In this document: in pieces, positions 22,010 through 46,607 of the stretch | How the letters are laid out: each line of letters starts with the position of its first letter | How positions within the stretch are numbered: position 1 is the first letter of the stretch | From: an uncultured Mycoplasmatota bacterium | GTDB lineage: Bacteria > Bacillota_I > Bacilli_A > RF39 > UBA660 | Reading direction: 5' to 3' | DNA length: 64,000 bases | Assembly: GCA_946488855.1 (NCBI GenBank) | Contig: CAMLWC010000002.1 | Coordinates: 7,292 to 71,291 of the forward strand | The notes under the pieces: model-generated | What the model was told of the DNA's origin: nothing | Seen by the model: the letters and a program-made list of their open reading frames with translations, nothing else | Database searches by the model: none | Made by a program: the position numbers and the translations under genes

Positions 22010-22230
22010 TATTATTCCTCCTTTTATTATAAACTTTTTTTTATTCCATATAATATTTTACACTTTTTTTGTAATTATTCAATATTATTTTCTTTATATA
22101 ATCAAATAAAATTGTTTTATGCATAATATATTCATAAGTATCAAAAAGAGTAGATTTTCATCCACCCTTCAATTAATCATTTATCATTAATTTTATTTTC
22201 AATAAAAATATTTGATAAAAAATTACATCT

Positions 22231-23442
22231 TTAAACTAATAAATTAGATTTAGATACAATAATAACAGGCACAACTTTACAACTATCAGTTTTTAAACCT
22301 TTATAATATTTTGAAGTATTATCGTCAATTTTTAGATATTGAAATGCACCATCATTATATTCATTATTAATCCAATAACAACTATTAGAAACTAAATAAC
22401 TAAAATTAGAATTATTAAATTTATAATATCCATCATTTGTGATTGCATAATTTAATTCATTATTTAATCTATCTTGATAATTTAAATTTCCAATTATAAC
22501 ATCTGATAAATTATTTCTTACTAAAACAGAATTATTAACATCTTTAGAAATAACAGATAATATATCACTCATTTCTAATGGTTTTGAAGTAACTTTCCAA
22601 TTTTTAGTTATTTGATTCATAGTAGTAGTATAATTTTCATATGTACTTACATCAAAGCCACTATTTAAATCAGGTAATAACTTAACTGTAGTATCACCTA
22701 CTTTATTTCTTGAATCAATTACATAAGTTTTTAAACAAAAAGCACTTACTTGATCACAAACTTTATTATTAATAACATCATACAAAACAACATCACCTAA
22801 ATTATAATTAGTGTCTGATGTTTCATTAGTAATCATCATTTGTTCTGCTTTTATTTCGATAACAACTTCTAAAGAAGATCTTATTTCATAATCAGGATTA
22901 GATTGTTTTTTTTGTTGTTCTTCCATATAAAATTGATATGCTTTATTTCCCCATTCACTATCTAATTCATCATTATTAGAATCAAGTGGCCATGATATAG
23001 AAACATTAAACTTACCACTATCACCATGGGCTAAAGCGTAATCTTTATCCAAACTCATATTAATATGAAATGGATAATCATGAGATAATTTATCTATTAA
23101 TTTCTCATTAGAATTATTATTTAAAACTTCATTTAAAACTCTAACTGATTTAATATTATAACTAATTTGAGCATCAGAATCTCCTAAATTAGATATATCA
23201 ACATCTTTAAATTCATTATCCATACCAGGATGAATATCTGATAATGAGATAACAATTTCATTTGAAACAACTTGTTCACCATTTTTAAATTCAATGTTCC
23301 AAGCTTTGATATCGACATCAACAGTAGCGCTTGATAAACCACTATAAGCAAACCAAGCTAAAGTAATAGAAACAAAAGAAATTGCAACAAAAAATAGCGA
23401 CATCAAATTTAATTTCAAAAATAATTTATGTTTTCTTTCCAC
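22231..23442 (-). CDS. Secreted TasA/camelysin-like protein with SipW-cognate-type signal peptide
   Basis: N-terminus K-rich, then hydrophobic, then ..SITLAWFAYS. The following segment LSDIHPGMDNEFKDVDISNLGDSDAQISYNI parallels TasA LSNLKPGDKLTKDFQFENNGSL. Last gene of the McrB-like unit. Confidence 0.5.
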   Translation of the reverse strand: MERKHKLFLKLNLMSLFFVAISFVSITLAWFAYSGLSSATVDVDIKAWNIEFKNGEQVVSNEIVISLSDIHPGMDNEFKDVDISNLGDSDAQISYNIKSVRVLNEVLNNNSNEKLIDKLSHDYPFHINMSLDKDYALAHGDSGKFNVSISWPLDSNNDELDSEWGNKAYQFYMEEQQKKQSNPDYEIRSSLEVVIEIKAEQMMITNETSDTNYNLGDVVLYDVINNKVCDQVSAFCLKTYVIDSRNKVGDTTVKLLPDLNSGFDVSTYENYTTTMNQITKNWKVTSKPLEMSDILSVISKDVNNSVLVRNNLSDVIIGNLNYQDRLNNELNYAITNDGYYKFNNSNFSYLVSNSCYWINNEYNDGAFQYLKIDDNTSKYYKGLKTDSCKVVPVIIVSKSNLLV

Positions 23443-23461
23443 TGTTACAACTCCTTTTCTT

Positions 23462-24025
23462 TTACGCTTTTTTTCTTCTTTTTTCTTCTTTTTCTAACAT
23501 AGTCATAAGTATTTCAGAACCAATAATATATAAAAGTGGTATAAATATTAGGAAAAACATTCCAAATTTTGTAGCAACTATTTTATATATAAATGATAAT
23601 ATTATGCATTTATATATAATTTTGCCATACACTTGATTTTCATAAACTATTGGATCTGGTGCATCATTGGCGATACCTTGTGTATGAAAAATATATTTTC
23701 CATCCTCATCTTGTTCGATATTAATAACTTCATGAGTTACAACTTTCCCAGCTAAAGTACCTTGCTTACCTAAATAAGAAATAGAATCTCCAATTTCAAT
23801 TTTAGATGGTTCAATCTCTTTAGCAATTAAAACGTCACCTATTTTATATTTTGGATCCATACTTCCAGAAACAACAGTAAACATTCTAAAACTTAAAAAT
23901 GATATTTTATTATTACTAAATCTTTGTAAAGCAACTACTAACAAAAATAAAATAATAAATATTGCAACAAATATATTTAAAATTGTTTTAATTATTTTAA
24001 AAGCTTTATTATTCATACTAACCAC
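23462..24025 (-). CDS. sipW: Signal peptidase I, SipW (ER/archaeal S26B) type
   Basis: TM helix, then VVSGSMDPKYKIGDVL (catalytic Ser box), VVTHEVI (His box), GIANDAPDP and a C-terminal TM. The track start is GTG at 24025; an alternative ATG is at 24016. Confidence 0.75.
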   Translation of the reverse strand: MVSMNNKAFKIIKTILNIFVAIFIILFLLVVALQRFSNNKISFLSFRMFTVVSGSMDPKYKIGDVLIAKEIEPSKIEIGDSISYLGKQGTLAGKVVTHEVINIEQDEDGKYIFHTQGIANDAPDPIVYENQVYGKIIYKCIILSFIYKIVATKFGMFFLIFIPLLYIIGSEILMTMLEKEEKRRKKA

Positions 24026-25149
24026 TACAAGTATTCTTGTGCCCTTTCTAAGTATTCTTCCATTGCATTTTTAAATTTTTTCTTAACATCATCCATACCA
24101 ACCAATCTTTCACTCTTATCTTTTTTTATTTCTTTAGCTATCATATTTAATAATTCTTCATCAGTTATTTCAATACCTGCACTTAATAATAAATCAACTA
24201 TTCTTCTTATTTCTTCCCTTAACAATAAAACTGCATTTTTAGCCATTTTTTTCTTTTGTTCTCTTTTAGAAGGAACTAAAGAATCTAAAACTAAATAATC
24301 TATTAAGAATGAATGATCCAAAAATCCTTTTAATACATCATTACCATTATCAGTATCATTTTCTTTTTTATCTTCATCATCTTCAAATTTTAATAAGTAT
24401 TCCCATAATTTAACAGCAATTCTAAAGTTAGGATTCTTTAAAATGATATTAGTTTTCTTAATTGGTGGCTTTATGAATGACACATGTGCTTTATCTAAAG
24501 CCTTATACATTTCACTTCTTTGCCAACTAGAAATATATTCTTTAATTCTTTTAATTCTAGCTTTGATTTTTTTAATTTCATCTTTAATTTTTTTGTCAAC
24601 TTTTGCAGTTGGTAAAGTTTCTGATGTAACTTTTAATTCAACATCTATTTTTTCAAAATCAGTTACTGTTTTAGCAGAATACTCTAATACTTTATCATCA
24701 CTTAATTCAAAATTATTAAGTAATTCTTCTTTTTCTAAAACAAATTTTAATAAAGAATCTATTAGAGTATAGAGAAACCTATTTTCATATATATTATAGG
24801 TTTCTTCATTTCTAACATCCAATATTTTTTTAGGTTCAACACTTTTAGTTTTCTTATCAACTTTATTAATATATTCAGTATGTTTACTCAAATCCTTGAT
24901 ACTTGCTACAGTAATTTTTTTAGACTTTTCAATTTTAACAGTATTTTCTTCTCTAATAAGAGCGATTTTAGGTTGTCTTACAATAATATCAATATATGGA
25001 CAAGCATCTTCTATTACATCAACCCAATCAAAAGATACTAAATTACCTTCATAATCAGATTTAAAAAACATTTCAGAACCTAATTTTTTTAAAAATATAT
25101 CAGTTCTATCTTTTACATCTTTTTCAACTTCACATTTAAAATTGTCCAT
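24025..25149 (-). CDS. McrC-N-terminal/DUF2357-like protein without recognisable nuclease domain
   Basis: 374-aa soluble ORF immediately downstream of the McrB-like gene. It contains NIYENRFLYTLIDSL, resembling the xENRF/LxK motif I associate with McrC/DUF2357 N-domains. I could not find a PD-(D/E)xK pattern. The C-terminal half is K/E-rich and helical. Confidence 0.4.
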   Translation of the reverse strand: MDNFKCEVEKDVKDRTDIFLKKLGSEMFFKSDYEGNLVSFDWVDVIEDACPYIDIIVRQPKIALIREENTVKIEKSKKITVASIKDLSKHTEYINKVDKKTKSVEPKKILDVRNEETYNIYENRFLYTLIDSLLKFVLEKEELLNNFELSDDKVLEYSAKTVTDFEKIDVELKVTSETLPTAKVDKKIKDEIKKIKARIKRIKEYISSWQRSEMYKALDKAHVSFIKPPIKKTNIILKNPNFRIAVKLWEYLLKFEDDEDKKENDTDNGNDVLKGFLDHSFLIDYLVLDSLVPSKREQKKKMAKNAVLLLREEIRRIVDLLLSAGIEITDEELLNMIAKEIKKDKSERLVGMDDVKKKFKNAMEEYLERAQEYL

Positions 25150-25166
25150 ATAATATCAACCCCTAA

Positions 25167-26696
25167 CTATATGCTTTTCTTAAGATTTTGTAAATATGCA
25201 ATACATTCTTTCATTACATCTTTACCAAATTTTTTATTCAAATAAGAAATAAATGGATCAATTTCATCTCTTAATAATGCAACACTTAATTGATCAAATT
25301 TTCTTAATATTTTTTTAGCAATAAAGTAATCAATTGCTTCTATTTCTTTACCACCACAAGCTACATAAACAGGAGTGAATACCCCTAATTGTTTCATAAT
25401 ACGATTACCAAAAGCAATTCTAAAATGTTCAATAACGTAATCATCTATTTCTCCAACATAATTTAATCCTTTATCAGATAATGGATATTTTTCAACTGCA
25501 TCAGCAAACAAACTGTCTAAATAACTTGAATTAATTTTTACTACATCCTGTTCACGACATTTAAATGGATCTACTTTAGTATTAATATCGATAGGCATAG
25601 CCCTATCATATACTTTATCAGTAACCATAAATGTTGAGTCATCATTATTAATAGTACCAATATACCAAAGATTTCCTGGTAATTTAATTTTTCCTTTAAT
25701 TAATTTTTTAGGATCATCTGGCCAAGCACTAGGAACTAAATCTACTAACCATTCATCACGACTAGGCATTTCAAGAATTGATAATAAATCTGCAAAATAA
25801 TATTCAACACGAGCTAAGTTCATTTCATCTAGAATAATTGTGTGAACATCATCATCAAATGAAGCAGCATATATTTCACCTAAAGCTTTAGTTTCATTGA
25901 ACTTTTTAGTAAATTCATTGAAATATCCTAAGAAATCTGATTTATCTCTCCAAGATGGTTCAACAGATGATACACAAGCATCCATACCCATAAATTTTCC
26001 CCAAGCATATGCTAAGGAAGTTTTACCTGTACCAGAGATACCTTGTAAAATAATTAACTTGCCACAAGCTAACCCACCAAAGAAAGGTCTTAAAATTGAA
26101 AAATCATAATATAAATGTAATTGACTAGCTGCAAAACATCTAAAATCATCAATTAATTGTGCTAAAGTTGTATCGTTTTCATATTTTTTAATTTTATAAC
26201 CTTCAAATTGTTCATCGATAGCCACCAATTTAGGAAATCTAATTCCTTTAATAGCAGCATCTTCTTCTTCAGGTTTTTCTTCTTCTTTATTTTCTTCAGT
26301 TTCTTCCTCAGGATTAATTCCTAATTGAGAAACTTTCATAGCCATTAATTCTTCTCTTTCTTTCATTAACTTTCTAACTTGATCATTTAAATTACCAATT
26401 TCAGTTAATAATTCATCTTTGCTTAAATTATTATTTAATTTTCTTATAATTTTTTTAACTAATAAGAAGATTAATAATGCTATTAATAAAACAATTATTA
26501 TTAAACAAACAACACACATAACAACAAATATTTTTTCATTACCATTAAAATTATCTTTATAACTTTCGATTATTTTAGCGTAATCACCAAAACTAAACAT
26601 CTGTTTAATACCATTAATAAATCCTTTAAAAGCATTAAACAATCCATCAAAAAAGATAGATATAAATTCGTAAAAAAATCTTAAAAATGTATTCAT
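25167..26696 (-). CDS. Membrane-anchored McrB-family AAA+ GTPase-like protein
   Basis: One TM helix (VVMCVVCLIIIVLLIALLIFLLV), a coiled coil and an acidic linker precede the AAA+ core. The core has Walker A GISGTGKTS, EPSWRDKSDFLGYFNEF, Walker B IILDEMNLARVEYYFADLLSILE and NLWYIGTINNDDSTF..YDRAMPIDI, paralleling the McrB GTMNxxDRS and RRF blocks. No DNA-binding N-domain. Confidence 0.7.
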   Translation of the reverse strand: MNTFLRFFYEFISIFFDGLFNAFKGFINGIKQMFSFGDYAKIIESYKDNFNGNEKIFVVMCVVCLIIIVLLIALLIFLLVKKIIRKLNNNLSKDELLTEIGNLNDQVRKLMKEREELMAMKVSQLGINPEEETEENKEEEKPEEEDAAIKGIRFPKLVAIDEQFEGYKIKKYENDTTLAQLIDDFRCFAASQLHLYYDFSILRPFFGGLACGKLIILQGISGTGKTSLAYAWGKFMGMDACVSSVEPSWRDKSDFLGYFNEFTKKFNETKALGEIYAASFDDDVHTIILDEMNLARVEYYFADLLSILEMPSRDEWLVDLVPSAWPDDPKKLIKGKIKLPGNLWYIGTINNDDSTFMVTDKVYDRAMPIDINTKVDPFKCREQDVVKINSSYLDSLFADAVEKYPLSDKGLNYVGEIDDYVIEHFRIAFGNRIMKQLGVFTPVYVACGGKEIEAIDYFIAKKILRKFDQLSVALLRDEIDPFISYLNKKFGKDVMKECIAYLQNLKKSI

Positions 26697-26699
26697 AAA

Positions 26700-28742
26700 C
26701 TACTCTCCCCAATAACTTCCTATTTTACTTGCTATATCATCATAAGCAATTTTATTGTGTAATTCTTCTTTAATTGATGATAAAACATCAATTGATTCAA
26801 ACATTTTCCCTTTTACTCTTTTATCGACAAATATGTATTCCATTGCTTCAACAATACCTTGATCTTTTGCTTTAACTGCTGAAGTTTTTAAATCAACGGC
26901 AAATCTATATCCATCTTTAATTAATGATTTAATAACCTTTTTATTCTTTGATAATTCTTCATATTGCGCTAAAACAATAATATTATTTTTAGCATATTCA
27001 TCACCAAATAAATTAAATATTTTATCTAATTTATTAGATTTAGTATATAAACTTTCTGGTATATAGAATATATATTTTTTATTAAAATCAGCATTCAACA
27101 TATCTTTAACAACTTGTACCAATAATAATGTTAATAAAACTTCTATTTTATCTTCAGCAACAATGCCATCATAATATGTTTTATCTACAATATAATCACT
27201 ATATACTTTACTAAAATTGATATTATGATTTAGTTCAACAGCATAAGTATTTTTTATTGATAAACTATTATAATTTAATTCAAATAAACTTGTTTCTAAT
27301 TTTTCAATTGTTTCCTTAACAATAGATTTATAAGTTTTTTGAATTTTTAATATACTACTAATCATAGTATTCATTGTTTTTGGATCAACTTCAGTTCCAA
27401 TTAATTTAACCATCTTATTTTTATAAGTTTGTTTTTTTATTTTAGTATCATCAATAACTAGATAAGTGTGTTCTAAATGCATAATTAAAGTAAATATATT
27501 AGTGTATTTTTTAACCTTTTCACTATATTTATTATCAGTACCTTTATATACTTTAATCATTTTTTCTGCTGCTTCTTTTAATGCATTTTCAATTCTAGTA
27601 TTCATATTACGGCCATTATATTCAACATTGACATCTCCGCAATAATTATAATATTTACCATCAATATAAACACTCATAAAGTTTTCTCTAATCGTTGCTT
27701 CATTAGTTTTTAAAGTTTCATCATTATTTAAAACTTCAATAATTTCCTTTAATTCTTCTTCTTTCATAAACATAATTTTTTCGATTATATTTTTGAATTT
27801 TTTCTTTTTATTTTGTAACATTTCTAATTTTAATTCAACTTCAGCAACTTTAGGTTCTTCTTCTTTTTCTACAACGACTGGTTGTTCTTCTTCAATTTCA
27901 ATTTTTTTAGCATAAGCATTTTCGATTTCATCTTTATCAACTTGAATCATTCTAAAATACATAGTTTTATCTAAATCTTCTGCTTCTAAAGGTTTTAAAT
28001 CAGTAATTGTTTCATCAATTTTTTCATCTTTTACTTCTTCAACCTTAGTAACTTTTACTTCTTCATCTTCTTCTTTTATATTATTTTGAATTTTTTCTGG
28101 TTCTGATTTTTCTTTAATATATTCATCATTAACTATTTTTTTCTTATCCTTTTTAATTAATTTAATAATATTTTTTATAAATATTTTTATTTTTTTAACT
28201 ACATTTGCCATAAATACATCAAATTTCTTCATATCTTTTTCCTTCTTATTCTTCTTAATTGTTAATGTTACTAAATAAACAGTAATAATAATTGCAACTA
28301 AAACATAAGGATTAAATATTGTTTTTTTAAATATACCAAAAGCAGGTAATACTTTAACAACTTTTCCAACTATTTGTTCTTGTGTAATTGGATCATCCTT
28401 AGCATCATTAGCATCACCTTTAGTTACATAAGTACCTTGGTATGCCTCAATAACTCTATGAGTTATAAATTCACCATCTTGCTTAAATGTAATAATATCA
28501 TCTAATTTTATATTTTTAGAATACTTAACAACTATCCAATCACCAGGTTCAACTGCTTCACCCATACTTCCTGTTTGCACTTCAAATACAGAGTAACCAA
28601 AAAAACTAGAGTAATCATTACCTAATAATTTAACTTGGATATTGTTATATATAGAAATTAATAATACTATTCCAAAAATAAAAATCAAAATATTTAAAAT
28701 AATATTAGTAATTTTTTCTAATATTTTACCTTTATTTACCAT
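26700..28742 (-). CDS. SipW-type signal peptidase fused to a large cytoplasmic domain of unknown function
   Basis: The first roughly 160 residues are TM, then QTGSMGEAVEPGDWIVV, ITHRVIEA, TKGDANDAKDDP and a second TM, a complete S26B peptidase. About 520 further residues follow: a K/E-rich low-complexity stretch and then a roughly 330-aa globular part. Confidence 0.7.
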   Translation of the reverse strand: MVNKGKILEKITNIILNILIFIFGIVLLISIYNNIQVKLLGNDYSSFFGYSVFEVQTGSMGEAVEPGDWIVVKYSKNIKLDDIITFKQDGEFITHRVIEAYQGTYVTKGDANDAKDDPITQEQIVGKVVKVLPAFGIFKKTIFNPYVLVAIIITVYLVTLTIKKNKKEKDMKKFDVFMANVVKKIKIFIKNIIKLIKKDKKKIVNDEYIKEKSEPEKIQNNIKEEDEEVKVTKVEEVKDEKIDETITDLKPLEAEDLDKTMYFRMIQVDKDEIENAYAKKIEIEEEQPVVVEKEEEPKVAEVELKLEMLQNKKKKFKNIIEKIMFMKEEELKEIIEVLNNDETLKTNEATIRENFMSVYIDGKYYNYCGDVNVEYNGRNMNTRIENALKEAAEKMIKVYKGTDNKYSEKVKKYTNIFTLIMHLEHTYLVIDDTKIKKQTYKNKMVKLIGTEVDPKTMNTMISSILKIQKTYKSIVKETIEKLETSLFELNYNSLSIKNTYAVELNHNINFSKVYSDYIVDKTYYDGIVAEDKIEVLLTLLLVQVVKDMLNADFNKKYIFYIPESLYTKSNKLDKIFNLFGDEYAKNNIIVLAQYEELSKNKKVIKSLIKDGYRFAVDLKTSAVKAKDQGIVEAMEYIFVDKRVKGKMFESIDVLSSIKEELHNKIAYDDIASKIGSYWGE

Positions 28743-28782
28743 ACTATATCAACCCTATCTTTGACTCTTTTCTTACTATATA

Positions 28783-28800
28783 TAATTTTACCATATTCGA
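28783..28800 (-). promoter_or_regulatory. Putative extended -10 promoter with abutting Spo0A-box heptamer (McrB-like unit)
   Basis: The minus strand reads TGTCGAA-TA-TGG-TAAAAT, about 40 nt upstream of the 680-aa ORF start: a perfect 0A-box heptamer (28794-28800), then a TGn extended -10. Confidence 0.45.
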
Positions 28801-28837
28801 CATTTTTTTACAATACTAAAAATTAAAAAAAGAATGT

Positions 28838-30448
28838 TTAATCATTCTCTTTAATTTCTTTAGCAACAATTTTTTCAACTTGCACAATAAACCAAATCTT
28901 TTCAATTGTTGTCTCACTTTTTTCTATTTTATTTACTCTTAATATTAATAATATCTTATTAAGTAAATTTTTAAGATTATCTTCATTTAAATCATCTTCA
29001 CTAATATTAATACTATTTAATCGATATTTATTACTAATTGTTTTAGCAATATTATTACTAGAAAAAATTGGTACACCAGTAATAATAATATTAGTTGGAT
29101 TCATTGCAAATAAATCAAAATTATCGCTATATTTAATAATTTCATCATAATCAGTTATATTATAAACTTTTTGAATAGTTAATTTTTTAAAATAATCAAA
29201 ACTATAATATAAATTCAAAACATCAGATATAGTTAATGTATCATTTAATATCATCATTACTTTATCCTTAAAATATTCAACATCATAAGTTTTATATAAC
29301 TCATATAATTCTTTTGCTTTTAAAACTGATTGTAATTTTAATTGTTTTAAAGCACTATCAGATCTAAACTCAAATAATCCTGGTTTACCACTAAAGATTT
29401 TCTTATTTAATTTTTCTAATTCATTTTCTTTAGTTTCTATTTGATCAATAATAGTTTTTAAACCTTTATATTCTTTTTTATCAGTTGTAAGTAATTTTTC
29501 ATATTCATCTTTAAAATATTTAAACATTGGATAAAATTCTAAATAATTTTGATATTCTAAAATATTTAGTTTTAATTTTTCTAAAGCAGGCGCTACTTTA
29601 TCAACATCAGTAACTTCTGGAATTAAAGTTTCAAACGCTGTTTTGCGTCCTTTACTATCACTTAAATATTGTTCGATATCTAATTCTTTAGTTTTAGCCA
29701 TAGCTATTATGTCACTAATAGTTTCTTTACTTGCCATATTTAAATCAATATAAGCATCTTGTAATTTTTCTAAACAATGAGCATAATCTCTAATTTTATT
29801 TTTCTCCATTACTTCTTTTTGTAATGTTAAAATATAATTATTAAATTTACGGCTATTTTTCTTAATTAACTTTCTAAAATTTAACTCTATATGTTGAATA
29901 AGTTCAGGATTTACCCAATAAATTTGTTCAAAAATTTCTGATACTTTATCATAACTACTTAATCTTCTATTTCTTACTTCTAAAAAAGCAGTCATATATT
30001 CATGAACATAACAAGTATAATTAAAATCATCACTTTCTAAATGAATACCTGCTTGTTCAAATTTATCTAATAAACCATTTATTATTTCATTTAAAGATTT
30101 AAAATTAAATGTATCATAATTATTAATTTGATATAGTAAATCATCAAAACACATTTTTTCGACATAAGTATTAGTTGGGTTTAAAAGAAATTTAACATTT
30201 TCTAAAGTTTCTAATTTTTCAGTTAATTTATCTAAATCAGTTGATTCCTTAACTTCAAAACTTTTAGCTTTAGCAATTAAATAATTTCTAGTGCTAGTTT
30301 TATATTCGTCATATCTTTCAATTATATTATCAATTGTTTCATTAAATTTCTTTTTATTTGTTTTAGTTTTAGTAGGCATAGTGGAAATTAATGTTTTTTT
30401 TGCTTCAATATCTTTATTTATAAATTCTAAAAAATTATTCATCTTCAT
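28838..30448 (-). CDS. Hypothetical cytoplasmic protein, 536 aa, helical/coiled-coil character
   Basis: No TM segment or signal peptide and no motif I recognise. Last gene of fibre operon A. A weak hairpin plus T-run overlaps its stop. Confidence 0.5.
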   Translation of the reverse strand: MKMNNFLEFINKDIEAKKTLISTMPTKTKTNKKKFNETIDNIIERYDEYKTSTRNYLIAKAKSFEVKESTDLDKLTEKLETLENVKFLLNPTNTYVEKMCFDDLLYQINNYDTFNFKSLNEIINGLLDKFEQAGIHLESDDFNYTCYVHEYMTAFLEVRNRRLSSYDKVSEIFEQIYWVNPELIQHIELNFRKLIKKNSRKFNNYILTLQKEVMEKNKIRDYAHCLEKLQDAYIDLNMASKETISDIIAMAKTKELDIEQYLSDSKGRKTAFETLIPEVTDVDKVAPALEKLKLNILEYQNYLEFYPMFKYFKDEYEKLLTTDKKEYKGLKTIIDQIETKENELEKLNKKIFSGKPGLFEFRSDSALKQLKLQSVLKAKELYELYKTYDVEYFKDKVMMILNDTLTISDVLNLYYSFDYFKKLTIQKVYNITDYDEIIKYSDNFDLFAMNPTNIIITGVPIFSSNNIAKTISNKYRLNSINISEDDLNEDNLKNLLNKILLILRVNKIEKSETTIEKIWFIVQVEKIVAKEIKEND

Positions 30449-30578
30449 TTTCCTCTTCTAACTCTATTTTACTTTCAACTAAAAATTGCGAAAAATCTGT
30501 AATATTTTGATAAACTTCAATCAATTCTTTTAAAGTTAGTGTCGATAAATCGAAATCTACTTTCTCTTCCCTTTTCAT
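30435..30578 (-). CDS. Small acidic 47-aa ORF (unannotated)
   Basis: AAAGGTGA RBS, ATG at 30578. Hand translation gives MKREEKVDFDLSTLTLKELIEVYQNITDFSQFLVESKIELEEENEDE. It overlaps the 536-aa ORF start by 14 nt. Confidence 0.4.
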   Translation of the reverse strand: MKREEKVDFDLSTLTLKELIEVYQNITDFSQFLVESKIELEEENEDE

Positions 30579-30595
30579 CTTATCACCTTTTTCCC

Positions 30596-31642
30596 CTATT
30601 CATATCCTTGTGTATCTTTTAAGAAATTTAATGAAATATATATTTCAGCGCCATCAGAATCTGTTTCTAGACTATCAATATCTTGTCCTTCAATCCAAAC
30701 ATATACTCTTGTTTTAGTTATACCATCTGGTACAGTAAATAAAGGTTGTTCGAAATCTTCATCAGTCATTGTTTCTTGTAATTCAAAATAATTTGGATCA
30801 AGATTTGGTGAACCAGATACTGTATTAGCTACAAATATAGGACCACCTGCTCTTGTAAATGCATATGTTGGAAACTCTTGTCCATCAATTAAATTAACGC
30901 CATATTTAGTAGCTCTTTCAATAGATAAATCAGAATGTGCTTTACTATTTGGTTCAAAAATAATAGAATAACAATTATTATTACATTCAATATTTTGAAC
31001 TTCATCTGCTGATGCATCTTTAGCAACAGATCCTAACTTAACAATACCAATACGAGCAGAATTTAATAAACCAATCATTTCTTCATCTGCATCTTTTTCC
31101 ATTGTGATTGAAGTACCATATTCAAAATATAAATTATCACTTACTGGAGAACCAGAATCATTTTTGAAAAACAAATCAAATGCTATATAATTATTGTACT
31201 CATTTCTGCCACCTTCATGCATTAAATTAGTTCTTATATAACCATTATTTTTATCCTTATTTGGATATCTAACCCCACTACTTGAAAACATATTAAATAT
31301 CGGACTATCATGATTAGTAATTCCATTTGAAGAAATAGGTACTAATCCACCACCTGCCCATTGACTTGTATTATTAGGATAAGTATATCTTAATCCTCTT
31401 ATAAGTTCATCAGCAGATATAATTAAATCAGTATCAAAATTAATCCCATCTAAAGAAATAGATAATCCAGTATTCTTTTTAACCGTCATAGTAAATGTTT
31501 TTACTCTAACATTTAAATTGGTTGAAAACCACGCATATGTTGAAAAAATAAGCAAAATACCTACTAATACCATAATAGTGATAGTAACTTTTTTATTTGT
31601 TTTTTCGATAATTCTTTGTCTAAAAGTATTTTGTTTTTTCAT
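30596..31642 (-). CDS. Secreted 'STYAWF' family protein (divergent, short member)
   Basis: Signal region ..LLIFSTYAWFSTNLNVRVKTFTMTV. Shared family blocks include LSISLDGINF, GLVPISSNG, YIAFDLFFKNDSG, ARIGIVKLG and the C-terminal ITKTRVYVWIEGQDIDS. Confidence 0.55.
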   Translation of the reverse strand: MKKQNTFRQRIIEKTNKKVTITIMVLVGILLIFSTYAWFSTNLNVRVKTFTMTVKKNTGLSISLDGINFDTDLIISADELIRGLRYTYPNNTSQWAGGGLVPISSNGITNHDSPIFNMFSSSGVRYPNKDKNNGYIRTNLMHEGGRNEYNNYIAFDLFFKNDSGSPVSDNLYFEYGTSITMEKDADEEMIGLLNSARIGIVKLGSVAKDASADEVQNIECNNNCYSIIFEPNSKAHSDLSIERATKYGVNLIDGQEFPTYAFTRAGGPIFVANTVSGSPNLDPNYFELQETMTDEDFEQPLFTVPDGITKTRVYVWIEGQDIDSLETDSDGAEIYISLNFLKDTQGYE

Positions 31643-31665
31643 TTTTCACCACCTAATTAATAAAG

Positions 31666-31692
31666 GAAGAGTAATTAACCAAATTACTCTTC
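31666..31692 (-). promoter_or_regulatory. Intercistronic hairpin between the 441-aa and 348-aa genes
   Basis: 11-bp perfect stem gaagagtaatt/aattactcttc with a 5-nt loop. Only a weak T-tract follows on the minus strand. Candidate partial terminator or mRNA-stabilising element. Confidence 0.45.
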
Positions 31693-31703
31693 TTTATTAT
31701 CAA

Positions 31704-33029
31704 TTATTCACCGTTTGTTGGAGTAATATCTGTACTTGGTCCATCATAACCTGGAATATCAGATTCATTATATCTTTCTTTAGTGAATCCAAAATTAACT
31801 GTAATTTTCTTTCCTAATGAAGCAAAGTCGTAATTATCGATATCTTGTCCTTCAATCCAAATGTAAACTCTAACTTTTGTAATACTATTTGGAGCTAAAG
31901 TCATAAATTGTGGACGATCTTTACCAGCAACATTTTTCATTGTATCAGTAAAGTACCCAATACCATCTGCTTTAGAATAAGTCATATCAACTAAATTATA
32001 TGTACTTCTTACTCCTTCTGTATAAGTTTTATAATCTACAGTATTTTTTGTATAAGTATTGTAAGCAGCACCATCATAAATATTAACATTATCAGCAATT
32101 TCAATATTATTACTGATTGCATATGTTGGATAAGCTGTTCCATCTTCTACAGCAGTACATTTTGAACCAGCAGTATATGAATCTGGATCATTAACATCGT
32201 CACCATCAGTAGATGCTTTTCTTAATAAACAAGATTTTTGATACCAATTAATAGCATTTTGTACGTGTTTAGTATCGTTTGGTTCCCAAATTTGAGCATC
32301 TCTACAAATTCCAGTTACTTGAACTTGGCCATCAGCAGCAGGTACATTAGCACAAGTTATTTTTGTGATATTATCAGCTGAAGTTGTATCTGCTTTAACA
32401 CGCCCGATTTGTGCGAAAGCAACTCTTACTGAATTTTCAATACCAGCTTTTTCTTTTCCACCATTTGCAGAAACTTTAACTTCTGAATTAGTAGTTAAAT
32501 AAATTGCTTCTTCATTTAATGGATTATTATCAGTATAATAAGCATTTCCTGATAAGTTTTTAATGAACAAGTCAAATGCTACATAACCATTTCCTTCTTC
32601 ATATTCAACACCACCAGCATTTAAAGTTGTATGATTATCAACTTGTTCAGATAATAATCTATAACCACCAGTAACAGCAGTTAAACTTCCTTTTTCATAT
32701 AATTTCATTCTTGATGAAGCTTTATCCATATCACCAACAGATGACATTGGAATTAATCCTTCGCCAGGTTGATCTAACCATTGGTTAGCATTTCCTTCAT
32801 AAGGATCAGCATTTCTTGCATCTAATGTATATTTCCAGTTTTCTCCATCCATAGATAAGAATAAACCTTCTGTTGTTGCTATATTAACACTAAATTCTGC
32901 AACATTAACAGTTTTCATACCAATAAACCATGCATAGGTTGAAACTGATAATAAAATTGCACACAAAGAACAAATAGCAACTAAATCTCTAATTCTTTTA
33001 CTTTTTTTACTATTATGTTTTTTTGCCAT
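31704..33029 (-). CDS. Secreted 'STYAWF' family protein, operon A copy (paralogue of 43873-45189)
   Basis: Signal region RIRDLVAICSLCAILLSVSTYAWFIGMKTVNV. Family blocks: GLIPMSSVGDMD, GGYRLLSEQV, GYVAFDLFIKNLSGNAYY, AGIENSVRVAFAQIGRV, IWEPNDTKHVQNAINWY, YPTYAIS and LAPNSITKVRVYIWIEGQDIDNYDFASLGKKITVNFGFTKE. Confidence 0.6.
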   Translation of the reverse strand: MAKKHNSKKSKRIRDLVAICSLCAILLSVSTYAWFIGMKTVNVAEFSVNIATTEGLFLSMDGENWKYTLDARNADPYEGNANQWLDQPGEGLIPMSSVGDMDKASSRMKLYEKGSLTAVTGGYRLLSEQVDNHTTLNAGGVEYEEGNGYVAFDLFIKNLSGNAYYTDNNPLNEEAIYLTTNSEVKVSANGGKEKAGIENSVRVAFAQIGRVKADTTSADNITKITCANVPAADGQVQVTGICRDAQIWEPNDTKHVQNAINWYQKSCLLRKASTDGDDVNDPDSYTAGSKCTAVEDGTAYPTYAISNNIEIADNVNIYDGAAYNTYTKNTVDYKTYTEGVRSTYNLVDMTYSKADGIGYFTDTMKNVAGKDRPQFMTLAPNSITKVRVYIWIEGQDIDNYDFASLGKKITVNFGFTKERYNESDIPGYDGPSTDITPTNGE

Positions 33030-33059
33030 AATTTCCTCCTATATTTAAATTTTAGTAAC

Positions 33060-33085
33060 CTAGAAGATTAATTAAAATCTTCTAG
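33060..33085 (-). promoter_or_regulatory. Intercistronic hairpin between the 414-aa and 441-aa genes
   Basis: 10-bp perfect stem ctagaagatt/aatcttctag with a 6-nt loop in the 64-nt gap. No strong T-run. Confidence 0.45.
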
Positions 33086-33093
33086 TTACCTTA

Positions 33094-34338
33094 TTATTCA
33101 CCTAATGTTGGTCTCTTATCAACATCACTTGGTAATGCTGGATCACCATCATAGTTGATATCTTCACCATATAATTGTTCTTTAGTAAATCCGAATGAAA
33201 GTGAGATTTGTCCTCCTAGTGAAGCAAAATCATAATTATCAACGTCTTGTCCTTCAATCCAAATATAAACTCTAATTTTTGTAATACTATTTGGAGCTAA
33301 ATAGAATAATTCTGGTCTTTCAGTTCCTTTTAAATTTTTCATTGTATCTGTGAAAGTAGATACTTTCATTAATTTGCCTTTAGTAGCAGTCATAGCAACT
33401 GAATTAGTATAACCATTGTATTCAGTACCATCATATACATCTACTTGATCAGTGTAATTAATTTCACCACTTACTGCATATGTTGGAACAAAAGTACCAT
33501 CAGTAACAGCACCACATGCACCACTAAATGAACTTGGATTAGTAATATCAGCCGCATTTCTCTTTAAGCATGATTTTGTATACCATTGAATTGCATTATT
33601 TACGTGTTTTGTATCATTTGGTTCCCAAATTGTAGCATCTCTATTTGTACAAATACTAGAAACGCCATTACCACCTGTACAATTAATTCCTTGAATTTTT
33701 GAAGTATTTTCTTCAGTTGCAACTACACGTCCGATTTGTGCGAAAGCAACTCTTACTGAATTTTCAATACCAGCTGTTTTTTGTCCAGCAGCACCAGTTT
33801 TAACAACTGATTGTGGAGTTAAATAAATTCCTTCTTCATTTTTTATATCAACTGTATCATAATAAGCATTTCCTGATAAGTTTTTAACAAATAAATCAAA
33901 TGCTACATATCCATCTTGTTCATCTGTATCATTTTCAACTTGGCTAGCCATTACACGATAACCACCAGGTGATGCAGTGAAGCTTCCTTTTTCAAATAAA
34001 ATTAAGTTTGAAGAATCAGTGTCGATTTTTCCAACTGTTGACATTGGAATTAATCCTTTACCACCCCAACTGTTTGTATTAGTCAAATATGTTCCTTTAA
34101 CACCAGGATCACTATAATTACTTTCGTTAATTGTTACTGTGTCACCAAAATTTTTACCATCTAATGAAAGTGATAAACCATCGATTGCAGCAATTTCTAC
34201 ATCGAATGCGGTAACATTAACAGTTTTCATACCAATAAACCATGCATAAGTTGAAACTGATAAAATAGTAGCACATAAACCAGCTCCAACAAGCAATCTT
34301 TTGACACGTTTTTCATGTCTTCTATTTCTTTTTTCCAT
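33094..34338 (-). CDS. Secreted 'STYAWF' family protein, operon A copy (paralogue of 45200-46594)
   Basis: Signal region RVKRLLVGAGLCATILSVSTYAWFIGMKTVNV and the same conserved blocks as 31704-33029 (e.g. AGIENSVRVAFAQIGRV, IWEPNDTKHVNNAIQWY, ITKIRVYIWIEGQDVDNYDFASLG). Confidence 0.6.
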   Translation of the reverse strand: MEKRNRRHEKRVKRLLVGAGLCATILSVSTYAWFIGMKTVNVTAFDVEIAAIDGLSLSLDGKNFGDTVTINESNYSDPGVKGTYLTNTNSWGGKGLIPMSTVGKIDTDSSNLILFEKGSFTASPGGYRVMASQVENDTDEQDGYVAFDLFVKNLSGNAYYDTVDIKNEEGIYLTPQSVVKTGAAGQKTAGIENSVRVAFAQIGRVVATEENTSKIQGINCTGGNGVSSICTNRDATIWEPNDTKHVNNAIQWYTKSCLKRNAADITNPSSFSGACGAVTDGTFVPTYAVSGEINYTDQVDVYDGTEYNGYTNSVAMTATKGKLMKVSTFTDTMKNLKGTERPELFYLAPNSITKIRVYIWIEGQDVDNYDFASLGGQISLSFGFTKEQLYGEDINYDGDPALPSDVDKRPTLGE

Positions 34339-34357
34339 ATGTACCTCTCTCTTTTCA

Positions 34358-35053
34358 TTAATTTTCTACGTACTCTGAATTGAAATCCATATAAACAGAG
34401 AATTCTCCACCTAAGATATCATCTGTACATTCAGGATCACTACCTTCAACCCAAATGACAATTGTGTATTTATCGATATCTCCAGGTTTAAAATTATCAA
34501 CTTTATTACGAGCAACTAATTTTTCTTCTTCAAACGGAATAGTATCTGGCTCATTTCTTCCATTAGAAGCTTTCTTAGCATATGTAACAGGTTGTCCGTT
34601 TCGATAGACTCTAATTCTTACAGCACTGTCAATTTTTTTGATAACATCTGTGATAAAAAGTTCACTCCAATAGCTTGTGATTTCATCTCCAACATTCTCA
34701 ACAAAAAATGTATAAGCAAGGTATTCAGAACCATTGTGAGAACCACCAGTAGAATCATCTAAATTATCAGGTAACCAATTACCAGATATATTAGTGAATG
34801 TTTTAGGCGAAGCAACTGATAATTCTGCTTGATACACTTTATAATTAGGATCATCGTAAATGATAATACCTCTACTAAAGTATAAGTTTTTATCCAGTGT
34901 TATACTAAAATTACCACTATTATAAATAATACCTATAACTAAATACAAAAGAATAAATAGGAAAAGAAATATTAATAAAGCTATTCTAAAGATCTTTTTA
35001 AGTTTTCTTTCATTTTTGATTTTCTTTGAACTAAGCTTAATCTTATCTTCCAT
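34358..35053 (-). CDS. Signal-anchored small fibre-locus protein (paralogue of 46608-47300)
   Basis: K-rich N-terminus, one TM helix, then IIYNSGNFSITLDKNLYF. C-terminal DIDKYTIVIWVEGSDPECTDDILGGEFSVYMDF shares the WxEGxD strand motif of the larger family. First gene of operon A. Confidence 0.5.
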   Translation of the reverse strand: MEDKIKLSSKKIKNERKLKKIFRIALLIFLFLFILLYLVIGIIYNSGNFSITLDKNLYFSRGIIIYDDPNYKVYQAELSVASPKTFTNISGNWLPDNLDDSTGGSHNGSEYLAYTFFVENVGDEITSYWSELFITDVIKKIDSAVRIRVYRNGQPVTYAKKASNGRNEPDTIPFEEEKLVARNKVDNFKPGDIDKYTIVIWVEGSDPECTDDILGGEFSVYMDFNSEYVEN

Positions 35054-35355: not shown

Positions 35356-35967
35356 ATGGCAATGAAATTTAAAATATTGTTAGTTATTAGTTCTTTGGCA
35401 TTGACATTAAGTTTAATGAGTAATACTTATTCAAGATATGTTGCTGATGTTGATAGCAATATTGATTTGTTATTTGCTAAGTGGCAAATTTTAGTTAATG
35501 AAAATGATATTACCAATAATACTACAACTTCTATCAATATTACTCCAGTAATGGAAGAAAATGTTAACGTTGCTGAAAATACAGTAGCCCCTTCTTCTAA
35601 AGGTTATTTTGATATTGATATTGATCCTTCTAACGCCGGTGTTTCATTTGATTATTCAATCAACTTAAATGTTGAAGATGAAAATATGCCTGATTTAATG
35701 ATCAGTAAATACGCAGTTTTAGATAAGGATTATAACGAAGGAGATCAAATAACTACAACCACTATTTTAAATAATACAATAGATGGAACTGTTGATTATA
35801 ATGCTACAGCACACGAACCATTTACAATAAGAGTATTCTTTGAATGGTATGAAGGTGTTGATGAAAAAATGGATGATGAAGCAGATACAAATATAGGTTA
35901 TGAAGCTGCATTAAATAATAAATCATTATTAGTGAATGCATCAATTAGTTTCAATCAAAAAATGTAG
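35356..35967 (+). CDS. Secreted TasA-like small protein (SipW-cognate-type signal)
   Basis: Signal ..LTLSLMSNTYSRYVADVD. IDLLFAKWQILVNEND and APSSKGYFDIDIDPSNAGVSFDYSINL parallel the 403-aa ORF at 22231-23442. C-terminal FTIRVFFEWYEGVDEKMDDE. Confidence 0.5.
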   Translation: MAMKFKILLVISSLALTLSLMSNTYSRYVADVDSNIDLLFAKWQILVNENDITNNTTTSINITPVMEENVNVAENTVAPSSKGYFDIDIDPSNAGVSFDYSINLNVEDENMPDLMISKYAVLDKDYNEGDQITTTTILNNTIDGTVDYNATAHEPFTIRVFFEWYEGVDEKMDDEADTNIGYEAALNNKSLLVNASISFNQKM

Positions 35968-36000: not shown

Positions 36001-36022
36001 AAACACAATTTTTATTGTGTTT
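36001..36022 (-). terminator. Hairpin terminator after the 177-aa gene
   Basis: 9-bp stem aaacacaat/attgtgttt with a 4-nt loop. T-tracts lie on both sides, so it may act bidirectionally. Confidence 0.5.
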
Positions 36023-36555
36023 TATTCTTCTACATCTACTTCATCACCATATTTAATTTCAACTATTAATGCATATAATTCATAGATAAAGATTAAGAAA
36101 CAAGGTACTAATACGATAAATAAGAAGCCCCATTGTGATTCAATAATTCCTAAAACTGTTCCAATATCATTATATACTTTAGTAGGTCTACCAATTAAAT
36201 ATTTAATTGAATATGTTTCACCATTTTCTAATGTAAGATAATCATCCATAACTTCTCCAACTTTGCCAATATTTATATCAGCAGTTTTAGACATCTTATC
36301 AACTTTATAAACGAATACTTCTTCACCTTTTTGTAAATTTTCTGGTGCTGCTGCTTCAACTAAAACTAAATCACCTTTTTGATATTCTTCATGACTTACT
36401 TTATCTTTTAAAATTACTAATGAAGTTTCACCAAATACTGTTACACGATAATCATTAAAGTTTAATAAGAGAATTGTCATAAATAATGCAAAGGTAAAAT
36501 AAACAATTCCTAATGTTACTAATAATACTTTCTTAATTTTTTTTAAAACTTTCAT
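36022..36555 (-). CDS. SipW-like protein lacking the canonical catalytic motifs (pseudo-peptidase?)
   Basis: Same size and topology (N- and C-terminal TM helices) and the same GD..V / G..V..V strand pattern as SipW paralogues. However, SGSM(E/D)P is replaced by GETSLVIL, and no THRV/THEV His box is recognisable. Confidence 0.45.
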   Translation of the reverse strand: MKVLKKIKKVLLVTLGIVYFTFALFMTILLLNFNDYRVTVFGETSLVILKDKVSHEEYQKGDLVLVEAAAPENLQKGEEVFVYKVDKMSKTADINIGKVGEVMDDYLTLENGETYSIKYLIGRPTKVYNDIGTVLGIIESQWGFLFIVLVPCFLIFIYELYALIVEIKYGDEVDVEE

Positions 36556-36564
36556 ACTTCCTCC

Positions 36565-37422
36565 TTAATTACATTCTACTTCTAATAAAGAAAATTCATT
36601 TATATCATAAGTAGCATCTTTATCTACTTTATAAAATATATAACTTAAATTATCTTTACTAGGTATTTCTAAAATTATTTCATTAATATAACCATTTGAC
36701 ATATTATAATTTGTTATATTTTCGTTATCAATTCTTAATTTATTAGCATCCCAATTTATTTTAACACATTTTTTAGTGTCAGAAGAATTAATTACTGTTA
36801 ATCGATCATAATTAGAAAATGATTGATATAACATATCTGTTTTTTCTATTAAGTTTTTATCTTTTTTAAGAATAAATATTCCTGTTAGTTTTTTTTCATA
36901 TGGTTCAGTAGTAACAACTTCAATGTTAGCAGTTACATTATCATTTTCTACATCAAAATATATATCTGAAGTAGCTTTTTGAATAACCCAATCATAACCT
37001 TTTACTTCACAAGTTGCTTTATCAAAATCGGTTGTATCTATACCATCATTTGTATTATTTACACAACTATTATAACTAGATAATGTCCCATAATAAACAT
37101 TCGAATCAGTTCCATTGACTTTACAATTACTACCATCATCTAATATACAAGTTACTTTATATTTTATATCATAATCAGTAACTAAAACATCATTGATATT
37201 ATTTTTTAAATTAAAATGAATACTTGTTCCATCCCAAACATTATTAACATTTTTAACGTTATTTCCTAGTTGATCACTACTTAAATAAAATCCTTGAGAA
37301 TTTAAATAATAATTCCAAACTGTATTAGATACGTATTTTGCTAATGTAAAACCGTTTGTAATAAGTAAGATTGTACCTAAAAATATAACAATCATTATTA
37401 AATATTTGCGCATTTTAATCAC
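36565..37422 (-). CDS. Secreted protein with SipW-cognate-like signal peptide, 285 aa
   Basis: N-terminus ..IFLGTILLITNGFTLAKYVSNT. N/T/D-rich mature part. No other motif recognised. Confidence 0.4.
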   Translation of the reverse strand: MIKMRKYLIMIVIFLGTILLITNGFTLAKYVSNTVWNYYLNSQGFYLSSDQLGNNVKNVNNVWDGTSIHFNLKNNINDVLVTDYDIKYKVTCILDDGSNCKVNGTDSNVYYGTLSSYNSCVNNTNDGIDTTDFDKATCEVKGYDWVIQKATSDIYFDVENDNVTANIEVVTTEPYEKKLTGIFILKKDKNLIEKTDMLYQSFSNYDRLTVINSSDTKKCVKINWDANKLRIDNENITNYNMSNGYINEIILEIPSKDNLSYIFYKVDKDATYDINEFSLLEVECN

Positions 37423-37951: not shown

Positions 37952-37960
37952 GATTCCCTC

Positions 37961-41361: not shown

Positions 41362-41464
41362 TCTTTTGCACTATGTTTCAACTAATTTATATAAATAATT
41401 AGTTGGAAAAATTATTTAATAAATTATTTCTTTCATAAAATAAATTTTGAAAGGAGGTAATAAA

Positions 41465-45189: not shown

Positions 45190-45199
45190 TTTATACCTC

Positions 45200-46594: not shown

Positions 46595-46607
46595 AATCCC
46601 TTCTTTC

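Follow-up and report, generated by a model that had tools for sequence, protein, structure and literature searches.

The window analysed here, a stretch of 64,000 nucleotides (nt) from contig CAMLWC010000002.1 of an uncultured Mycoplasmatota bacterium (assembly GCA_946488855.1, positions 7,292 to 71,291), carries a unit of five genes in which a membrane-anchored McrB-like GTPase and an McrC-like protein stand together with two SipW-type signal peptidases and a secreted protein (Table 1). The module is a member of CoCoPALM, a named but mechanistically unstudied system, and it probably acts in the biogenesis or control of SipW-dependent surface proteins and not in nucleic-acid restriction. An earlier note on this DNA had stated that no described system has such an architecture, which proved wrong, as the architecture was described and named CoCoPALM in 2024 by Bell, Sahakyan, Makarova, Wolf and Koonin (eLife; PMC11090510, section 7). 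CoCoPALM was given one paragraph in that paper, with its analysis deferred to a later one, and was presented as an NxD McrB GTPase fused to an FtsB-like transmembrane (TM) segment and coiled coil and linked to signal peptidases, with coiled coils in both the McrB and the McrC homologues (PMC11090510); a literature search for a follow-up found no later paper. Of these features, the module of the window, going by its sequence, exhibits the NxD motif, the anchoring TM helix and the link to signal peptidases. New in the present analysis are the synteny survey, the constraint on the GTPase, the core gene order in distant relatives, the McrC-SipW fusions and the EAL-like tail of one of the peptidases.

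The GTPase, its partner and the peptidases

The five open reading frames (ORFs) are co-directional and encode, in order, proteins of 680, 509, 374, 187 and 403 amino acids (aa), separated in turn by 3 nt, by 17 nt, by an overlap of 1 nt and by 19 nt; the ORF listing bore out the positions and the spacing that had been given for them, and all of the quoted motifs were found, those of the 509-aa protein being GISGTGKTS, EPSWRDKSDFLGYFNEF, IILDEMNLARVEYYFADLLSILE, IGTINNDDSTF and DRAMPIDI, and that of the 374-aa protein NIYENRFLYTLIDSL. The window has ~24% G+C, and its GC skew is strongly negative along the whole length. The unit had also been credited with its own promoter and with a weak hairpin after the preceding gene. 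Both elements are seen, the promoter-like site upstream of the 680-aa gene and, after the 536-aa gene, a 7-bp A+U-rich stem followed by U7, but the site is indistinguishable from chance, since matches to the consensus are no commoner in the window than in shuffled sequence (79 found vs 79.8 expected, in a scan that has no statistical power in 24% G+C DNA), and the hairpin is no better than shuffles (z = -0.07). At the other end, the terminator-like hairpin that lies 3' of the last gene indicates that the unit ends cleanly.

Table 1. Features of the five-gene unit and of the surrounding locus, with positions in the window.
Feature	Coordinates	Strand	Remarks
Five-gene unit	22231-28742	-	680-, 509-, 374-, 187- and 403-aa ORFs
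680-aa fusion protein	26700-28742	-	SipW-type peptidase 1-165; Lys/Glu-rich variable linker 166-329; conserved cytoplasmic domain 330-680
SipW-type peptidase domain of 680-aa protein	28248-28742	-	residues 1-165: TM1, catalytic domain, TM2
680C domain	26703-27755	-	residues 330-680: helical subdomain, then putative degenerate EAL-like alpha/beta barrel
509-aa membrane-anchored McrB-like GTPase	25167-26696	-	NxD branch
Single TM helix of 509-aa protein	26451-26534	-	residues ~55-82; hydropathy peak 3.84
Walker A, G219-ISGTGKT-S227	26016-26042	-	invariant in 21 homologues; aligns with McrB motif
Walker B, IILDEMN	25818-25838	-	residues 287-293; invariant in 21 homologues; aligns with McrB Walker B
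Signature NxD(D/E), N350-N351-D352-D353	25638-25649	-	aligns to E. coli McrB NTAD
374-aa soluble McrC-like protein	24025-25149	-	DUF2357 core and helical tail
187-aa stand-alone SipW-type signal peptidase I	23462-24025	-	archaeal/ER-type
403-aa secreted protein	22231-23442	-	SipW-type signal motif ITLAWFAYSG; final gene of unit
Intrinsic-terminator-like hairpin	22145-22170	-	11-bp stem then U run; z = -2.8
Promoter-like site TTGTAA-17-TGgTAAAAT	28785-28813	-	upstream of 680-aa gene
Upstream part of conserved locus	28838-35053	-	536-aa cytoplasmic protein and four membrane-targeted proteins (348, 441, 414, 231 aa)
536-aa protein	28838-30448	-	no TM helix; 25 orthologues, median identity 56%
Block directly preceding 680-aa gene in most other genomes	36022-41290	-	1109-aa surface protein, 178-aa, 285-aa and 177-aa (pseudo-SipW) proteins
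177-aa SipW-like pseudo-peptidase	36022-36555	-	both TM helices kept; catalytic Ser -> Lys, His -> Tyr

The 509-aa protein is, by its motifs and alignments, an McrB-family GTPase of the NxD branch in which Walker A, Walker B and the signature are intact and which carries an N-terminal TM helix. It comprises an amphipathic N-terminus (residues 1-45), the TM helix, a helical segment (~88-126) whose coiled-coil character was judged by eye, an acidic linker (127-150) and the GTPase (~150-509). In the signature, N350, N351 and D352 are invariant among the 21 aligned homologues, with D or E following at position 353; NHDE, NSDQ and NKDE are the forms seen in distant relatives, and among the 150 closest representatives almost every one with a locatable motif reads N-x-D-(D/E/Q), the NxD variant being the one that defines a major McrB branch (Bell et al., PMC11090510). 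The only sequence relatives of the family in the PDB are E. coli McrB chains (E = 0.003 with the single sequence and 5e-6 with the family profile), and hhalign relates the family to E. coli McrB with a probability of 96.4% (E = 1.3e-9). The McrB-like AAA+ hallmarks that had been read in this protein are upheld by the invariance of the motifs in homologues and by PDB matches to McrB only, and its place in the McrB/AAA_5 clade holds on the side of McrB, by the PDB profile and hhalign, but not on that of Pfam, in which AAA_5 gives no match and AAA only a sub-threshold one. No DNA-binding specificity domain was detected in residues 1-150 with Pfam or NCBIfam, and hydropathy and alignment agree with the earlier statement that a TM helix, a coiled coil (here a helical segment) and an acidic linker take the place of the DNA-reading N-terminus of McrB.

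The sequence KKIIRK follows the TM helix, so that, by the positive-inside rule and the need for GTP, the C-terminal GTPase domain would lie on the cytoplasmic side of the membrane. This topology, with the coiled coil in the cytoplasm, would be the reverse of that of FtsB, and Pfam DivIC/FtsB gives no match to the protein at E <= 0.1. Residues 1-45 (MNTFxRFFYEFISIFFDG...), which would be extracytoplasmic or interfacial, are nearly invariant and are recognisable in homologues of ~35% identity; this conservation suggests that the N-terminus engages in a specific contact at the outer side of the membrane.

The 374-aa partner appears from its profile match to carry the N-terminal (DUF2357) core of McrC, with no recognisable nuclease. 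Pfam DUF2357 (PF09823) matches residues 53-148 above its cut-off (44.2 bits vs 23.3; 1.8e-11; model positions 96-191 of 251), as the McrC/DUF2357-like label attached to it earlier would lead one to expect, and no TM helix is predicted by hydropathy. Among 75 orthologues EETYNIYENRF and KKTNxxLKNPNF are conserved, and no conserved D...(D/E)xK was observed; nor is there a match to a nuclease family in Pfam, NCBIfam or PADLOC, and the claim that the partner has no PD-(D/E)xK pattern stands. AlphaFold2 with a 22-sequence alignment gave a poor model (predicted local distance difference test, pLDDT, 54) with an all-helical C-terminal half and, at this low confidence, one helix (186-210) after a beta-hairpin, and Foldseek returned nothing significant for it (best E 0.056, V-ATPase stalk subunits); the case against a nuclease is therefore one of sequence and secondary structure and not of a confident fold. 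hhalign detected no relationship between the 374-aa family and E. coli McrC, which makes the latter a poor comparator for DUF2357 proteins. McrC-like homologues of 370-1057 aa match the same DUF2357 model, and those of 500-1057 aa exhibit long Glu/Arg/Lys-rich helical regions. Pfam applied to eight McrC-like homologues found only DUF2357, with Peptidase_S26 in the one SipW fusion scanned, and no nuclease. A hydrophobic FGIIPxDTDNPxY segment near the C-terminus is shared by the long homologues.

Both SipW-type peptidases, the 187-aa protein and the N-terminus of the 680-aa protein, appear catalytically intact from their conserved residues. The 187-aa protein matches TIGR02228 with 79.6 bits (cut-off 51.85; 2.2e-22), and its catalytic Ser (SGSM), His (TH) and Asp are conserved in 71 orthologues. 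In the 680-aa protein, residues 52-129 match Peptidase_S24 (26 bits, cut-off 23.3), GSM, THR and GDxN are conserved in 60 orthologues, and an alignment of its N-terminus to the 187-aa SipW brings Ser (TGSM) and His (THRV) into register; its TM segments lie at 7-40 and 137-165 by hydropathy, each of the active SipW proteins having two TM helices. The description of a complete SipW fused to ~520 cytoplasmic residues, with a second SipW standing alone, is borne out by these matches and by the kept Ser, His and Asp. The third paralogue, of 177 aa, is present in 50 of the 80 related loci described below, usually directly upstream of the 680-aa gene, and is probably a pseudo-peptidase or chaperone by analogy with SipA of group A streptococcus, a signal-peptidase-like protein needed for pilus polymerisation (PMC2797073). 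SipA/LepA of the sortase-dependent streptococcal pili is likewise a catalytically dead signal-peptidase fold within a fibre locus, but it is of the bacterial Ser/Lys type and works with sortases, whereas the scaffold here is of the SipW type, with no sortase match among the locus proteins scanned.

The cytoplasmic tail of the 680-aa protein (680C) was modelled by AlphaFold2 from 23 homologues with a pLDDT of 82.8 and a predicted template-modelling score (pTM) of 0.78. With this model every one of the first 31 Foldseek matches in the PDB is an EAL domain, and so are nearly all of the 50 best, Bd1971 giving the best E value (1.5e-4) and the FimX EAL domain 5e-4, with target-normalised TM-scores of <= 0.55. 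Pfam EAL does not match any of the 23 homologues, a PDB sequence profile search gave no match, and the EAL, DDFG and KxD positions are not among the invariant residues, so that a degenerate EAL-like fold, and not a phosphodiesterase, is indicated. The EAL domain of FimX is a degenerate c-di-GMP receptor that regulates type IV pilus biogenesis, and by analogy the EAL-like domain here may act as a regulatory input. The most conserved motif of the tail, HNIxFSKVYSDYIVDKTY.G..AEDK (residues 506-532), falls in a low-confidence loop of the model, which is a candidate docking site. In five metagenome loci (L148, L151, L153, L154 and L159) 680C is encoded on its own, by the gene immediately 5' of the McrB-like one, indicating that it belongs functionally with the GTPase.

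Conservation, gene order and known relatives

A scan of GTDB with one genome per species detected at least 569 relatives of the GTPase, of which 80 loci were kept for synteny; the GTPase family as a whole contains >8000 clusters at 90% identity, all of ~510 aa and unannotated. The 80 loci come from uncultured gut bins, mostly labelled Bacilli, Tenericutes, Mollicutes or Candidatus Coprovivens (Bacilli incertae sedis in NCBI), and their lineage is suspected to be GTDB order RF39. The order 680-509-374-187-403, with all genes co-directional, was observed in 80 of the 80 species loci wherever the contig extends. Most of the loci that are long enough have the order 1109-178-285-177-680-509-374-187-403, and the commonest larger order is 348-536-1109-178-285-177(pseudo-SipW)-680-509-374-187-403; in the window, a cassette of 231-414-441-348-536 intervenes between the 177-aa and the 680-aa genes. 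Differential conservation was also observed within the five-gene core, with median identities across species of 72% for the GTPase, 59% for the 187-aa, 56% for the 374-aa, 49% for the 403-aa and 45% for the 680-aa protein, and the GTPase is the most constrained of the five.

The core extends to more distant relatives. A metagenome scan seeded with TM-bearing homologues, to which hidden Markov models of the window families were applied, gave another 80 loci from gut, rumen and digester, whose GTPases are 32-48% identical to the seed, the seed itself being ~34% identical to the window protein. The core SipW / TM-McrB / McrC-like / SipW was observed almost everywhere among them, the pair being flanked by SipW genes in most loci that extend far enough, and genes for a 231-like membrane protein and for 348/414/441-like secreted proteins usually lie upstream of it; this core order is kept from 98% down to ~32% identity. 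The question raised with the first reading of the window, whether SipW and SipW-signal genes are recurrently linked to the GTPase, is answered positively by the 80 of 80 related genomes and by the more distant metagenome loci. The McrC-like proteins of the metagenome loci range from 370 to 1057 aa, and in three loci (L131, 9610-12579; L141, 1948-5121; and L146) they are fused to SipW in single ORFs of 984-1057 aa, in each of which a complete SipW peptidase accompanies the DUF2357 core and a long helical region rich in Glu and Arg; the L141 fusion was confirmed by Pfam (DUF2357 and Peptidase_S26). Such fusions are a Rosetta-stone indication of physical association between the McrC-like protein and SipW.

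Compared with CoCoPALM as published, the module shares the NxD McrB-like GTPase with a TM and helical segment, the DUF2357 McrC homologue with no nuclease and the signal-peptidase genes. It differs in that its McrC-like protein is minimal (374 aa with a short helical tail), whereas long coiled coils are present in other lineages, and in the EAL-like domain on one SipW, which the paper does not mention; moreover, the published FtsB-like label of the N-terminus is not reproduced by Pfam, the predicted topology is opposite to that of FtsB, and the published description has no gene-level anatomy. With canonical McrBC (E. coli; PDB 6HZ4, 6UT6 and 7VSR) the module shares the GTPase core with its Walker A, Walker B, Asn/Asp signature and DRAM Arg, as well as a partner gene immediately downstream with an McrC-type N-terminal domain, but a TM anchor stands in place of the DNA-binding domain, the signature is NxD and not NxxD, the partner has no PD-(D/E)xK nuclease and is not detectably similar to E. 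coli McrC, and the module lies on the chromosome, within a secretion/fibre locus, throughout the lineage.

By sequence, the GTPase domain is closest to CoCoNuT and PADLOC PDC-M26, which share the NxD branch with it and likewise carry helical extensions at the N-terminus; unlike the module, CoCoNuT proteins are of 700-800 aa, soluble and with long coiled coils, and are located on plasmids and phage-like contigs. CoCoNuT is linked to HEPN or other nucleases (PMC11090510). No CoCoPALM examples were found in the supplementary files of the CoCoNuT paper. Among the 150 closest 50%-identity representatives of the GTPase, 87 have a TM segment before Walker A and 60 have none, most of the latter being of 660-870 aa and the rest shorter and probably partial sequences. 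A CoCoNuT-like pair was also observed on an unverified 'Bacteriophage sp.' contig from human faeces with 41% G+C (L162; MT835511.1, 34037-45916), the best phage match of the tblastn search described below, where an 824-aa coiled-coil NxD McrB-like protein with no TM segment accompanies a 689-aa DUF2357-like protein, with two large ORFs upstream.

Proposed function and competing explanations

The canonical McrBC ring is a hexamer. In the mechanism proposed here the GTPase would form a cytoplasmic ring tethered under the membrane, like the ring of McrB in PDB 6HZ4 and 6UT6, and the McrC-like protein would dock into this ring and stimulate GTP hydrolysis, while the complex would be joined to the peptidases through the EAL-like 680C tail on SipW in this lineage or, alternatively, by direct McrC-SipW fusion as in the three metagenome loci. 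The GTPase cycle would gate or power the step in which signal-anchored subunits are cleaved and passed into the growing fibre. A true mechanochemical role in assembly is advanced only tentatively, at somewhat below even chances, and with similar reserve CoCoPALM might be seen as an unrecognised class of GTP-driven Gram-positive surface-fibre assembly machine that is near-universal in the lineage, with an McrB/McrC motor exapted to work through the membrane with SipW-type peptidases and an EAL-fold signal input; GTP hydrolysis, not self-assembly or sortase chemistry, would then drive or gate the polymerisation of the Sec-exported subunits.

Two known kinds of surface-fibre system provide points of comparison. 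With the tapA-sipW-tasA operon of B. subtilis, CalY, BsaA and the archaeal bundling pili, the locus shares a dedicated SipW-type peptidase beside its putative substrates, several presumed major and minor subunits and, by eye, an (S/T)-aromatic-A-aromatic-F signal motif, but these systems have no nucleoside triphosphatase (NTPase) or McrBC parts and a single SipW, whereas three paralogues, one of them inactive, are present here, and the secreted proteins of the locus have no sequence similarity to TasA or Peptidase_M73. By the title of Terra et al. 2012, cited in PMC4551309, SipW of B. subtilis is said to be bifunctional and to control biofilm formation, and its second role reportedly needs the C-terminal tail. 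As the dedicated peptidase, SipW processes TasA and TapA (PMC4551309). The type IV pilus follows the same logic, with anchored pre-subunits, a dedicated peptidase, a cytoplasmic ring-type NTPase and a degenerate EAL-fold domain (FimX); the parts are not homologous, SipW cleaves on the outward side of the membrane, and an AAA+ GTPase of the McrB type takes the place of the PilB/secretion ATPase, so the likeness is an analogy only. A paper on a pilin from clade TANB77 was also considered and is unrelated to this system.

Several points weigh against the assembly machine. The contacts between GTPase, McrC-like protein and SipW are deduced from gene order and fusions only, and for every CoCoPALM the function is a prediction. 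No known TasA-type fibre needs an NTPase, reviews and papers describing self-assembly after SipW cleavage; the nearest non-TM relatives (CoCoNuT, PDC-M26) are considered defence systems. The EAL-like assignment of 680C is at the level of the fold only (Foldseek E ~1e-4, no Pfam match), and a highly divergent nuclease in the 374-aa protein is conceivable, given the low-confidence model. For the secreted proteins no similarity to TasA, or to a fibre subunit of solved structure, could be detected, and their presumed fibre-forming nature follows from the type of signal, the many paralogues, the large 1109-aa protein and the published reading of CoCoPALM.

The absence of an energy requirement for TasA-type fibres in the literature, together with an EAL-like fold fused to SipW whose structural matches include FimX, a degenerate EAL c-di-GMP receptor, would also suit a regulatory checkpoint in place of a motor, and the second role ascribed to B. 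subtilis SipW points the same way. The GTPase and the EAL-like domain would then sense GTP and possibly c-di-GMP, and the fused SipW would be switched allosterically, fibre output being set post-translationally with no mechanical work. However, the EAL signature residues are not conserved in the EAL-like domain, Pfam does not match it, and it is missing from most of the distant CoCoPALM loci, in which the GTPase/McrC pair is always present; furthermore, the GTPase is extremely conserved over its whole length, the predicted extracytoplasmic N-terminus included, which suggests many structural contacts and is more typical of a machine. A pure checkpoint is judged unlikely.

An envelope-associated anti-phage or abortive-infection module, the second of the two hypotheses put forward earlier, would be an McrB/McrC-derived membrane sensor that answers phage attack, and phages using the fibre as receptor might trigger a shutdown of fibre export or cell killing. 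The descent of the pair from McrBC, a restriction system, is compatible with this, as are the closest non-TM relatives, which are of the CoCoNuT type and located on plasmids and a phage-labelled contig, and the match of the GTPase part of the 509-aa protein to PADLOC candidate PDC-M26A (2.8e-36); this domain is, however, all that matches a PADLOC candidate protein, and no complete defence system was found. Defence islands are typically patchy and fast-evolving, whereas every related species genome sampled has the module, in conserved order and with the 72% median identity of its GTPase, and its surroundings are of the housekeeping kind (FtsK, enolase and MurD, plus a PBP-like protein read by eye from the sequence, flank the locus in the window). 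No nuclease, HEPN domain or other effector was found in the operon with Pfam, NCBIfam or PADLOC. In a tblastn search of 50,697 phage and 72,556 plasmid records there was no full-length homologue, only GTPase-domain matches of <=41% identity, and these phage and plasmid relatives are non-TM forms only. With the McrC-SipW fusions, the vertical conservation and the constraint, these observations disfavour the anti-phage hypothesis, which is very improbable, and the other of the two, a motor or checkpoint for export or assembly of fibre subunits, is favoured.

The anchoring of an AAA+ protein at its N-terminus, with the ring in the cytoplasm, is also what a membrane quality-control factor would exhibit, in which the tethered ring, like FtsH or Msp1, would extract uncleaved pre-subunits or spent signal peptides and keep the Sec/SipW pathway clear under heavy export of fibre proteins; the unusually long, basic cytoplasmic n-regions of the presumed subunits might, speculatively, interact with the acidic juxtamembrane linker of the GTPase. 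It is McrC, however, and not a threaded substrate, that fills the pore of the ring in the solved McrBC complexes (PDB 6HZ4 and 6UT6), no protease partner is present, and the conserved and sometimes fused SipW pair would be left unexplained; quality control is about as improbable as defence. Three further candidates were rejected: a role of the McrB-like protein in DNA uptake or competence, as the module contains no DNA-binding domain; a role in cell division, as the FtsB-like label might suggest, since the neighbours outside the fibre locus are not conserved and the predicted topology is inverted; and a sortase-like polymerisation by the peptidase, since the acyl-enzyme of a signal peptidase would hold the signal peptide and not the mature subunit.

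If the assembly machine is real, a restriction-enzyme motor has become a part for cell-surface assembly, a clear exaptation from a conflict system to a housekeeping one, and there is a new energy-dependent route to Gram-positive fibres in addition to those of sortase pili, type IV pili and self-assembling TasA. For a named, uncharacterised system, the fusions of McrC to SipW and the EAL-like SipW tail offer contacts that can be tested. The host bacteria, uncultured and with small genomes, abound in the guts of humans and animals, and the retention of a locus of this extent (~25 kb in the window), with a GTPase at ~72% identity, in a reduced-genome lineage indicates that the fibres probably have a central part in the attachment of these bacteria to partners or host, or in their interaction with them.

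Secreted proteins and the wider locus

At least ten ORFs between 22231 and 47300 exhibit a basic n-region and a hydrophobic stretch together with a putative SipW-type signal motif. Two classes of motif were observed, (S/I)T(Y/L)AWF in the 403-, 348-, 441-, 414-, 438- and 472-aa proteins, and (T/S)(Y/L)(S/A)x(F/Y), including SLARY, in the 178-, 285-, 203- and 1109-aa proteins, and these might correspond to the two active SipW paralogues. By eye, STYAWF, ITLAWF, TYSMF, TLAKY and SLARY resemble the GTWAAF region of TasA. The LAWFAYSG motif is nearly invariant in 69 orthologues of the 403-aa protein. This last protein had been called TasA-like; it is secreted and carries the signal motif ITLAWF, but neither the TasA nor the Peptidase_M73 profile matches it, and at E <= 0.1 Pfam and NCBIfam, these two profiles included, gave no family match for the 403-, 348-, 441-, 414- and 231-aa proteins. 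A profile of 18 major-subunit homologues found nothing in the PDB or Pfam. Sortase families were not matched among the locus proteins scanned, the 1109-, 285-, 178- and 203-aa ORFs being outside that scan.

The genes of the upstream part of the locus co-occur with the core module in many loci. The STYAWF signal motif is present on the 348-, 441- and 414-aa proteins, while the 231-aa protein is TM-anchored with no such motif, and the 536-aa protein has no match in Pfam, NCBIfam, PADLOC or a PDB profile search. In the block that precedes the 680-aa gene in most other genomes, the 178- and 285-aa proteins have T(Y/L)(S/A)x(F/Y) signal motifs. Genes outside the fibre locus are not conserved among related loci.

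Some further observations concern the arrangement of the locus in this genome. A cassette is duplicated, with genes for 230-, 472- and 438-aa proteins (43873-47300, minus strand) corresponding to those for the 231-, 414- and 441-aa proteins (31704-35053, minus strand), the 438- and 441-aa proteins sharing 69% identity; the two copies are kept apart by the 1109-178-285-177 block and an insertion sequence. An IS605-family TnpB gene (42603-43784, minus strand; Pfam HTH_OrfB_IS605, OrfB_IS605 and Cas12f1-like TNB) lies between the two fibre-subunit cassettes, and its insertion may relate to the rearranged gene order. The sole plus-strand gene inside the fibre locus (35356-35967) sits between the pseudo-SipW and the 231-aa genes and encodes the 203-aa secreted protein with an SNTYSRY motif. 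Divergent from the 1109-aa gene is a 330-aa ORF (41447-42439, plus strand) with Pro/Glu-rich repeats, a C-terminal hydrophobic tail and no Pfam match. Elsewhere in the window, a Peptidase_C39 / ABC_membrane / ABC_tran fusion (58589-60625, minus strand) represents a processing exporter of the bacteriocin type that is unrelated to the module.

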